From an uncultured Erysipelotrichaceae bacterium (GTDB lineage Bacteria > Bacillota_I > Bacilli_A > Erysipelotrichales > Erysipelotrichaceae), in the NCBI GenBank assembly GCA_964457525.1, contig CAYWGS010000006.1:1-29362 (forward strand): a stretch of DNA of 29,362 bases, written 5' to 3'. The position numbers and the translations under genes were made by a program. Positions 1,844 through 2,116 of the stretch are shown here, piece after piece (positions within the stretch are counted from its first letter, which is position 1; the number at the start of each line of letters is the position of its first letter). The notes beneath the pieces were generated by a model. The model worked only from the letters and a program-made list of their open reading frames with translations, was not told the DNA's origin and did no database searches.

Positions 1844-1859
1844 GAATCATAGTATTTTC

Positions 1860-2100
1860 AACATTTTCCTCAAAGTTTGACTTGTAATCGAGCTGAACCA
1901 GAGTTAATATCACACACACGACTTCGAGATAGTTAAGTCTATTTCCAGAAGTTACCTGTTTCTGACAGGGTGTACTCTTGCTACGGAGACTGGTTCTCCC
2001 AGACCCAATAATACTTACCCACCCTTGTCCCCTTGGTTGTCAGAGGATGTAATTCCAGGAGAGAGACTTATCAGTTGAGGTTGTAGTTCGGTTGCCAAAC
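1860..2100 (+). ncRNA. candidate bridge (guide) RNA region in the IS110 left end
   Basis: Based on position: IS110-subgroup elements encode their bispecific guide RNA in the non-coding end upstream of the recombinase. Local hairpins are visible (CCTGT/ACAGG at ~1955-1969; GGAGA/TCTCC at ~1985-1999). The two-loop architecture and guide matches could not be verified by eye. Confidence 0.3.
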
Positions 2101-2116
2101 AGGAGGACAATGTTGA

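Follow-up and report, generated by a model that had tools for sequence, protein, structure and literature searches.

The window analysed here comprises 29,362 nucleotides (nt) of contig CAYWGS010000006.1 (assembly GCA_964457525.1) from an uncultured Erysipelotrichaceae bacterium. Near its start, an intact recombinase gene of the insertion-sequence (IS) family IS110 lies between parts of polymorphic toxin genes (Table 1). Toxins of this kind are weapons between bacteria. The contig starts inside a toxin gene whose tip matches PF11429 Colicin_D (E = 3.6e-7, residues 95–175), and the open reading frame (ORF) that overlaps its stop codon is presumed, from its position, to be the immunity gene and part of the cargo; Pfam gave no match for this ORF. 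Two non-coding modules, a conserved RNA gene, the recombinase gene and a non-coding right end follow, and behind them lies an orphan toxin tip. An earlier note on this DNA had proposed a two-loop bridge RNA in the left end of a compact element. Our analysis supports this in part: a guide RNA appears to be present, but the anatomy of the element and its target differ from those proposed.

Table 1 Features of the recombinase locus and of its predicted guide RNA
Feature	Position	Strand	Basis
3' part of polymorphic toxin gene, Colicin_D tRNase-type tip after ...SNEGG	2..553	+	Pfam
Left site copy, GAGGGTGGG, E-G-G at toxin trunk/tip junction	221..229	+	repeat of right site
146-aa ORF overlapping toxin stop codon; presumed immunity gene	553..993	+	ORF list
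Module X, ORF-free, G+C-rich, non-coding	1036..1665	+	shared with the recombinase in the close clade
Small-RNA or leader-like module	1670..1845	+	promoter-like TTGACA-17-TGgTAAACT, G-rich motif, terminator
Promoter-like box TTGTAA-17 nt-TAATAT	1882..1910	+	conserved in family; would start the RNA at ~1917
Candidate bridge-RNA-like guide RNA gene	1897..2103 (RNA proper ~1917-2100)	+	covariance-model match R1
Stem-loop SL1	1921-1925/1948-1952	+	alignment A1, structure counts
Stem-loop SL2	1955-1959/1965-1969	+	alignment A1, structure counts
Stem-loop SL3	1985-1989/1995-1999	+	alignment A1, structure counts
Helix 2	2003-2007/2088-2092	+	alignment A1, structure counts
Helix 3	2012-2014/2083-2085	+	alignment A1, structure counts
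Predicted guide loop, 5' strand, TTACCCACCCTT	2015..2026	+	complementary to right junction
Helix 4	2027-2029/2065-2067	+	alignment A1, structure counts
Helix 5	2032-2035/2056-2059	+	alignment A1, structure counts
Predicted guide loop, 3' strand, TTATCAGTTGAGGTT	2068..2082	+	same sense as right-end terminus
IS110-family DEDD/Ser recombinase, intact	2117..3355	+	412 aa, ORF list and Pfam
Right non-coding end	3356..3488	+	terminator-like hairpin and terminal hairpin
Right site copy, AAGGGTGGG (K-G-G)	3489..3497	+	homology among copies ends here
Orphan toxin tip, putatively displaced (TASGADNIATGAKLKEFY...), in-frame stop	3498..3713	+	homology to full-length toxins

Recombinase family and distribution

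Judged by its domains, the product of 2117–3355 is a member of the IS110 family. Both domains named in the earlier note were recovered, PF01548 DEDD_Tnp_IS110 (E = 1e-21) and PF02371 Transposase_20 (E = 2e-20), and the protein matches the solved recombinases IS621 (E = 2.9e-12) and ISCro4 (E = 2.4e-11). Residues D14, E66, D108 and D111 align with D11, E60, D102 and D105 of IS621, in an N-terminal alignment that is weak, while the Tnp domain contains the Ser motif KLSSAG.

The gene is present in a single copy in the window's 1.6-Mb, 174-contig assembly. Relatives were collected at 78 loci from a scan of genome contigs and at 79 more from a scan of metagenome contigs; many of these are metagenome bins and some represent the same insertion, so the counts overstate independence. 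Close copies, at 86–92% DNA identity, occur in unrelated flanks in a Eubacteriales metagenome-assembled genome (MAG), Fusibacter sp. 3D3, a Fusibacter MAG and Clostridiales UBA4080. Copies that are 94–96% identical are spread across several genera (Fusibacter, Eubacteriales, a Clostridiales bin), and some genomes hold multiple copies. The different contexts, together with a repeated core, point to a mobile insertion sequence. A search of 40 host relatives did not recover the recombinase clade; the only IS110 proteins there are at most 28% identical, and this fits horizontal arrival. As the earlier note had observed, the element is richer in G+C than its host, at 0.43–0.45 for 1036–3355 against 0.347 genome-wide.

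A conserved RNA and its predicted guide loop

The stretch 1850–2116, ahead of the recombinase gene, is non-coding as previously described, with no plus-strand ORF of at least 60 residues. The 230 nt 5' of the gene can be aligned among relatives with at least 55% protein identity, mainly Lachnospiraceae, Clostridium, Ca. Galacturonibacter and Bacillota bins, and the start region of the RNA contains an invariant ATCACAC in this alignment. The promoter-like box is kept as TTG(C/T)AA-17-TAA(C/T)AT in at least 20 relatives; with 8 of 12 matches it falls under the threshold of the consensus scan, and its promoter role is putative.

The structure was assessed in a sequence-based alignment of 22 sequences (A1), in which five helices were counted. 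In these helices 97.8% of cells are paired, and 12 of the 20 pairs show changes on both sides. None of 500 shuffles reached the observed values, and slid controls were 35–57% paired. The polarity of the RNA is fixed because G-U pairs occur on the gene strand. These compensatory changes argue for a structured RNA, as expected of a bridge RNA. Both hairpins picked out in the earlier note are present: CCTGT/ACAGG (SL2) is kept in relatives with a co-varying closing pair, and GGAGA/TCTCC (SL3) is limited to the window's close clade.

A covariance model (R1) built from A1, with the window sequence in its seed, has exactly one site in the whole genome of the window (E = 4e-21). It also finds 25 non-seed metagenome sites, all on the recombinase strand and ending 20–30 nt 5' of the gene, and gives no match in IS110 relatives of 46% identity or less. 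Against shuffles, folding is better for the 267-nt stretch (z = −3.5) but not for the 145-nt core (z = +2.4), so that support for the RNA is comparative rather than thermodynamic. A search of 900–4200 against Rfam 15 at E ≤ 1 returned nothing apart from chance micro-RNA matches, and no match reached gathering score across the window; the two micro-RNA matches, on the 1787–1833 terminator hairpin (E ~0.4, below gathering score), were rejected as chance. We infer a conserved RNA gene at about 1917–2100, whose transcription is suggested by the conserved promoter-like box. No conserved structured RNA was found in the right ends of the family, which agrees with the upstream placement first proposed. 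An RNA upstream of the gene and on the same strand assigns the element, on present evidence, to the IS110 subgroup rather than to IS1111.

Usual IS110 elements carry a CT core. Bridge RNAs have been described for IS621 and other IS110-group recombinases (Durrant et al. 2024, PMC11208160; Hiraizumi et al. 2024, PMC11208158), and the IS621 loop carries a same-sense left guide on its 5' side and a complementary right guide on its 3' side (PMC11208160; PMC11208158). In the present RNA, an internal loop is bounded by helices 3 and 4. Its 5' strand, extended by G2027, is the exact reverse complement of CAAGGGTGGG (3488–3497), where homology among the copies stops. Against the predicted circle junction, AAGGGTGGGTTA, the same strand matches 11 of 12 positions, 10 of them contiguous; the contiguous match is 10 bases at the circle junction (right end–AAGGGTGGG–TTAAAC) and 9 at the right junction. 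The 3' strand contains GTTGAGG, in the same sense as the right-end terminus GTCAAGG, with two positions that would be G-T/U-G wobbles, and it also matches the toxin-side sequence (G/T)TTGAGG.

In 25 loci, complementarity between the 5' strand and the right junction spans 9–12 nt, with a mean match of 9.6/12 to its own junction against 7.6/12 to the junctions of other groups; over the variable 7 nt the values are 5.2 and 3.1. Seven junction variants each have a fitting guide, namely GGGTGGG (window clade), GGGTGGC (L136), GGGTGGT (Lachnospiraceae), GAGTGGTA (L117), GGGAGGCT (L007 group), GGGAGCGA (L025) and GGGAACGCC (L030). The 3' strand, CAG(U/C)UGAG(G/A), tracks the right-end terminus TG(T/C)CAAG(G/A): its T/C position agrees with the right end in 24 of 25 loci, its G/A position agrees in L117, and its two middle positions would pair as U-G and G-T wobbles. 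In L117 the host toxin junction reads I-E-S-G (GAGAGTGGT), and the matching A is found in the guide, in the right end and in the 10-nt direct repeat.

On this co-variation, the two loop strands read the top and the bottom DNA strand and overlap at AAGG, which is the pattern of a bridge RNA. The earlier expectation of complementarity between loop and junction is thereby upheld: one internal loop co-varies with the DNA, in a strand order reversed relative to IS621. The same site may be described on the opposite strand as CCCACC-CT-(T/C)(G/A)AC, which would restore the canonical CT core and strand order and would imply that gene and RNA are inverted within the element. Of the target and donor loops proposed earlier, one guide-bearing loop was recovered and a second was not. 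In its variable 5' half (SL1–SL3), which could not be matched to the flanks, the RNA holds no second sequence that tracks the site variants. Because most of the site is common to donor and target, a single loop might suffice for the two. The outer three bases of the guide, compared with the cargo start and the right flank, gave no discrimination between them.

Two other readings of these complementarities were considered and rejected. The 10-nt inverted repeat (2018–2027 against 3488–3497) was taken neither as an IS1111-type sub-terminal repeat nor as the arms of an invertible segment, because conservation of the element extends to the upstream box and hairpins, and no reading frame would be altered by inversion. 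An IS621-like arrangement, with CCACCT as left flank and CCTCAAC (3460–3466) as right junction, is confined to the window clade and was dropped because Lachnospiraceae right ends lack CTCAAC. As a separate observation, ACCTCAAC (3459–3466) is complementary to the 3' strand of the loop in the window's close clade only.

The conserved RNA could also be a 5' leader that controls the recombinase, its complementarity to the right end being a DNA inverted repeat that forms a protein-binding site or a pairing between the 5' and 3' parts of the mRNA. Such a leader would suit an RNA that runs into the recombinase ribosome-binding site, the unremarkable single-sequence folding energies and the 7–17-bp sub-terminal inverted repeats of IS1111 elements. 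We consider it very improbable. The repeat partner here belongs to a loop that co-varying helices enclose; it is about 90 nt away from the gene and at least 1 kb away from any left end. The site is followed by both strands of this loop, one as its complement and the other in the same sense, as in bridge RNAs. Moreover, the guide follows the host toxin codons (E-G-G against E-S-G), which neither a protein-binding site nor mRNA pairing would need.

Some copies depart from the common form of the RNA. In two loci of Fusibacter sp. 3D3 (L004:2843–2908 and L087), a 63-nt insertion splits the guide between TACCCAC and CTTGTCC, and one of these two copies retains an intact recombinase gene. In L159 and L163 a hairpin is inserted into the same loop strand. 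At L052:2128–2300, a G-rich module is joined directly to the 3' half of the guide RNA in what looks like a deletion derivative without the 5' half.

The toxin junction and the probable extent of the unit

The right site falls at the border between right end and orphan tip. The right non-coding end, given as about 90 nt in the earlier note, measures about 134 nt when the first site base is included (3356–3489). It closes in a terminal hairpin, confined to the window's close clade, in which CCCACCT (3455–3461) pairs with AGGGTGGG (3490–3497). Its last codons, ...AVGVYVKGG, continue in frame into the toxin tip that follows. In all copies, likewise, the right flank carries an ORF in frame with the ...V/A-K-G-G encoded by the right end, and these ORFs encode diverse toxin tips. 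In the window, the orphan tip is 88–91% identical to the tips of full-length toxins, including a 1734-aa Rhs protein. In the three closest full-length proteins the tip follows (E/K)GG and begins with TAS, and more distant matches (at most 67% identity) include LXG- and CdiA-type toxins. Toxin cassettes are A+T-rich everywhere, and in L017 and L138 the G+C content falls from 0.51–0.53 to 0.31–0.37 exactly at the junction.

AGGGTGGG occurs a second time only at 222–229. The site has no other direct repeat, and this one falls within the toxin gene upstream; at the copies of the site, no pair of terminal inverted repeats was found. The 47 kb of upstream DNA from 19 loci whose guides are of the GGGTGG type contain [AG]AGGGTGG 14 times on the gene strand, against 1.4 expected, and its reverse complement twice. 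The motif is found in 14 of the 19 loci, one per locus and 1.8–2.7 kb upstream of the RNA. Each time it is read as in-frame (E/K)GG within a long toxin ORF that continues for a further 102–208 residues. Repeats across loci are 8–16 nt long, the 16-nt repeat being that of L025. The main toxin genes of the same loci carry (G/A)AGGGTGG at the trunk/tip junction, and in C. neonatale a 41-nt sequence that starts exactly at AAGGGTGG is common to the main toxin and the orphan next to the IS. By these alignments, the site is the (E/K)-G-G codons that join the conserved trunk to the variable tip of clostridial polymorphic toxins, and the crossover core is predicted to be the AG at 222–223, or CT on the other strand.

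From this we infer a mobile unit of about 3.3 kb, 222–3497, because the site copies pair, units recur in differing contexts and the guide fits the circle junction best. The same unit of tip, immunity gene, X and recombinase is found in L003 and L006 (95.7% identity over 1268 nt). The L003 unit is joined to a complete toxin trunk, and the L006 unit sits after the right end of another copy; homology breaks at TTAAGGGTGGG. Tandem arrays occur in L006 and L138.

Our preferred reading, which we consider probable though by no means secure, is that a guide RNA and a toxin-swapping unit at 222–3497 together exchange toxin tips in frame. The RNA at about 1917–2100 would be the bridge-type guide of the IS110-family recombinase, and its single loop, framed by co-varying helices, would in vivo pair with and read both strands of a 9–12-bp site. 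The overlap of the two pairings would set the crossover at AG on the gene strand (CT on the other). The unit would consist, in order, of the Colicin-D tip, the immunity gene, the non-coding modules, the guide RNA, the recombinase and the right end, and its circle junction (right end–AAGGGTGGG–tip) would serve as the donor site. Insertion at a toxin junction would swap the tip in frame and push the former tip, with its immunity gene, downstream as an orphan (3498–3713 here); excision would reverse the replacement. More broadly, the clade might represent a natural RNA-guided exchange of 3' modules in frame, in which the guide evolves with the junction codons (E-G-G, E-S-G, K-G-A) through a single wobble-using loop that is the mirror image of the IS621 loop. 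This wider proposal is tentative, and we put it at somewhat below even chances.

The earlier note had placed the left end about 270 nt ahead of the gene, implying an element of about 1.6 kb, but close copies share 1036–3497, and a left end at 1850 was rejected since homology with them extends to 1036. Placing the left end at 1036 and reading the flank as ...V-H-L was also set aside: such a reading is trivial given the constant CACCT, the offset is 11 nt and there is no repeated core. A compact IS110 element could nevertheless run from about 1036 (or about 1850) to 3497, with the tip and immunity gene as resident DNA. It would target the junction before orphan tips, and the upstream AGGGTGGG would be there merely because all such toxins have it. 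The left edge of the backbone is sharp, within about 11 nt of 1036, beside five different cargoes; L111 agrees with the window in the backbone and over the first 100 nt of the orphan, with different cargo upstream; and behind the next immunity gene lies a decayed partial copy of X (4803–4947, 74% over 147 nt) unaccompanied by a recombinase, so that X may belong to the cassettes. All three observations fit a smaller mobile core or a cassette-exchange step, for instance recombination between tandem backbones. G+C also steps up at 1036.

We nonetheless regard the compact element as improbable. No site copy and no AG/CT core is shared between copies at the 1036 or 1850 edge, the window's own edge differs by 11 nt, and backbone homology in Lachnospiraceae begins at three different places. 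A compact element would be expected to leave a toxin trunk directly abutting the RNA gene, which is seen at no locus. The guide also matches best the right end joined to the start of the tip (10 contiguous bases against 9).

A second alternative is a domesticated, largely non-mobile switch that deletes and re-inserts the DNA between the junction sites in the manner of a shufflon or of Piv. Piv-type DEDD recombinases are site-specific switches, Piv itself being a pilin invertase. The single recombinase copy in the assembly accords with this view, as do sites that form direct repeats in one frame, so that deletion would fuse the trunk to the orphan tip. Yet the 94–96% identical copies in Fusibacter, Eubacteriales and the Clostridiales bin, the several copies in some genomes, the clade's absence from the 40 host relatives, the G+C-richer backbone and an orphan that is already broken here make a switch quite unlikely.

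The whole-unit reading has its own difficulties, of which the sharp edge near 1036 and the different cargo of L111 are two, with the decayed copy of X as a further caveat. No empty site was found, the island being absent in the 40 relatives searched, and neither a circle junction nor a transcript of the guide RNA was seen. A second guide, sought in the 5' half of the RNA as same-sense and complementary 6-mers and against the site variants, gave nothing consistent. Most Lachnospiraceae guides are mismatched at the position facing the A beside GGG, and the strand order of the guide is opposite to that of IS621, where the left guide lies on the 5' side. The overlap among the collected loci tells in the same direction.

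Known systems and neighbouring modules

The system resembles IS621 in its DEDD RuvC-like and Ser Tnp domains and in an RNA of about 190 nt that lies upstream on the same strand. The loop strands would read the top strand to one side of the crossover and the bottom strand to its other side, with an overlap at the core; the 3' loop is conserved and the 5' half variable, guide pairing includes wobbles, and the core is CT if read on the strand opposite to the gene. It differs from IS621 in that one guide loop is resolved and its strand order is reversed. Donor and target share 7–8 bp here and 2 in IS621, and the promoter-like box is internal and is not rebuilt at the circle junction. The recombinase is distant, with only the Tnp domain confidently aligned (E = 3e-12), and cargo plus non-coding DNA appear to account for about 1.9 kb of the unit.

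IS1111/seekRNA elements belong to the same recombinase family and show a comparable inverted-repeat relation between an internal sequence and the element end. Their RNA lies downstream of the gene and their sub-terminal repeats lie at both ends, whereas here the RNA is upstream and the repeat partner sits inside the RNA loop.

The appearance of new tips, and of orphan arrays with live immunity genes, is usually ascribed to homologous recombination. The present locus resembles the orphan arrays of Rhs, CdiA and LXG toxins, in which a main toxin gene is followed by promoter-less tip-immunity cassettes that keep a short piece of the junction. It departs from the effector-displacement model of these arrays, which relies on homologous recombination, in having an RNA-guided recombinase with a junction-matching guide between the cassettes. 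Such a recombinase offers a testable site-specific mechanism for the delivery and displacement of tips in Clostridia. For bridge recombinases, the clade would offer a natural case of in-frame targeting of coding sequence and of a guide re-aimed several times in nature, and a loop geometry unlike that of IS621 bears on the freedom that the RNA scaffold allows.

Cargo-carrying expanded IS110 elements have been described by Hu et al. (2026 preprint, 10.64898/2026.08.14.744561). The unit proposed here would likewise exceed the canonical 1.5 kb and would share with them passenger genes, tandem arrays and boundaries half-matched by the guide. The cargo reported there is mainly plasmid-derived and resistance cargo; here a toxin tip and an immunity gene would be carried, in a placement that keeps insertion in frame. 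The word 'toxin' is absent from the searched text of that preprint (10.64898/2026.08.14.744561), and no link of IS110 elements to polymorphic-toxin cassettes was found in the literature covered, which did not extend to subscription journals.

Module X, 0.63 kb long, contains a duplicated hairpin, CACAC-AGGGCGAAC-GTGTG, at 1321–1376 and 1496–1551, as well as several GACCACCT-like motifs and variable hairpins that differ between copies by compensatory substitutions; it has no Rfam match. A minus-strand ORF in 1036–1665 was rejected as a gene, being unrelated junk here, while its counterpart in one Lachnospiraceae subgroup is a genuine conserved protein of 114 residues. In one Lachnospiraceae subgroup, a conserved protein of 111–115 residues is encoded on the opposite strand between module and guide RNA (L017:1957–2301 on the minus strand, L047, L048 and L020).

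The module at 1670–1845 has its G-rich motif at 1710–1730 and a strong terminator hairpin at 1787–1833 with a T-run. Homologous modules with promoter, G-rich motif and terminator recur in Lachnospiraceae loci, some directly before genes. Because some copies immediately precede a start codon, the module may serve as a leader or a ribosome-binding element instead of encoding a small RNA. The idea that it is a distinct target-binding RNA was rejected, since no complementarity was found and the module also precedes ordinary genes. Modules with a G-rich motif of the GGGGGTATAAGGGGG type repeat in the toxin loci of several genera (L017:1780–1960, L012:640–950 and 5490–5800, L015:4150–4220, L035:2960–3100).

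Distant relatives carry other recombinase genes between the toxin cassette and the guide RNA (L021:1926–2504, L030:2108–2821, L040:2100–2876, L007:1851–2429, L012:1637–2368), which are serine resolvase-like, tyrosine recombinase-like or fragments of an IS110 recombinase. Relatives at 43–46% identity in Paenibacillus and Cohnella (L036, L038, L040–L042) lie directly 5' of PT-HINT pre-toxin domains (IKxLTNEGEK...); their upstream RNA, missed by the covariance model, keeps the outer helix and has different loop strands.

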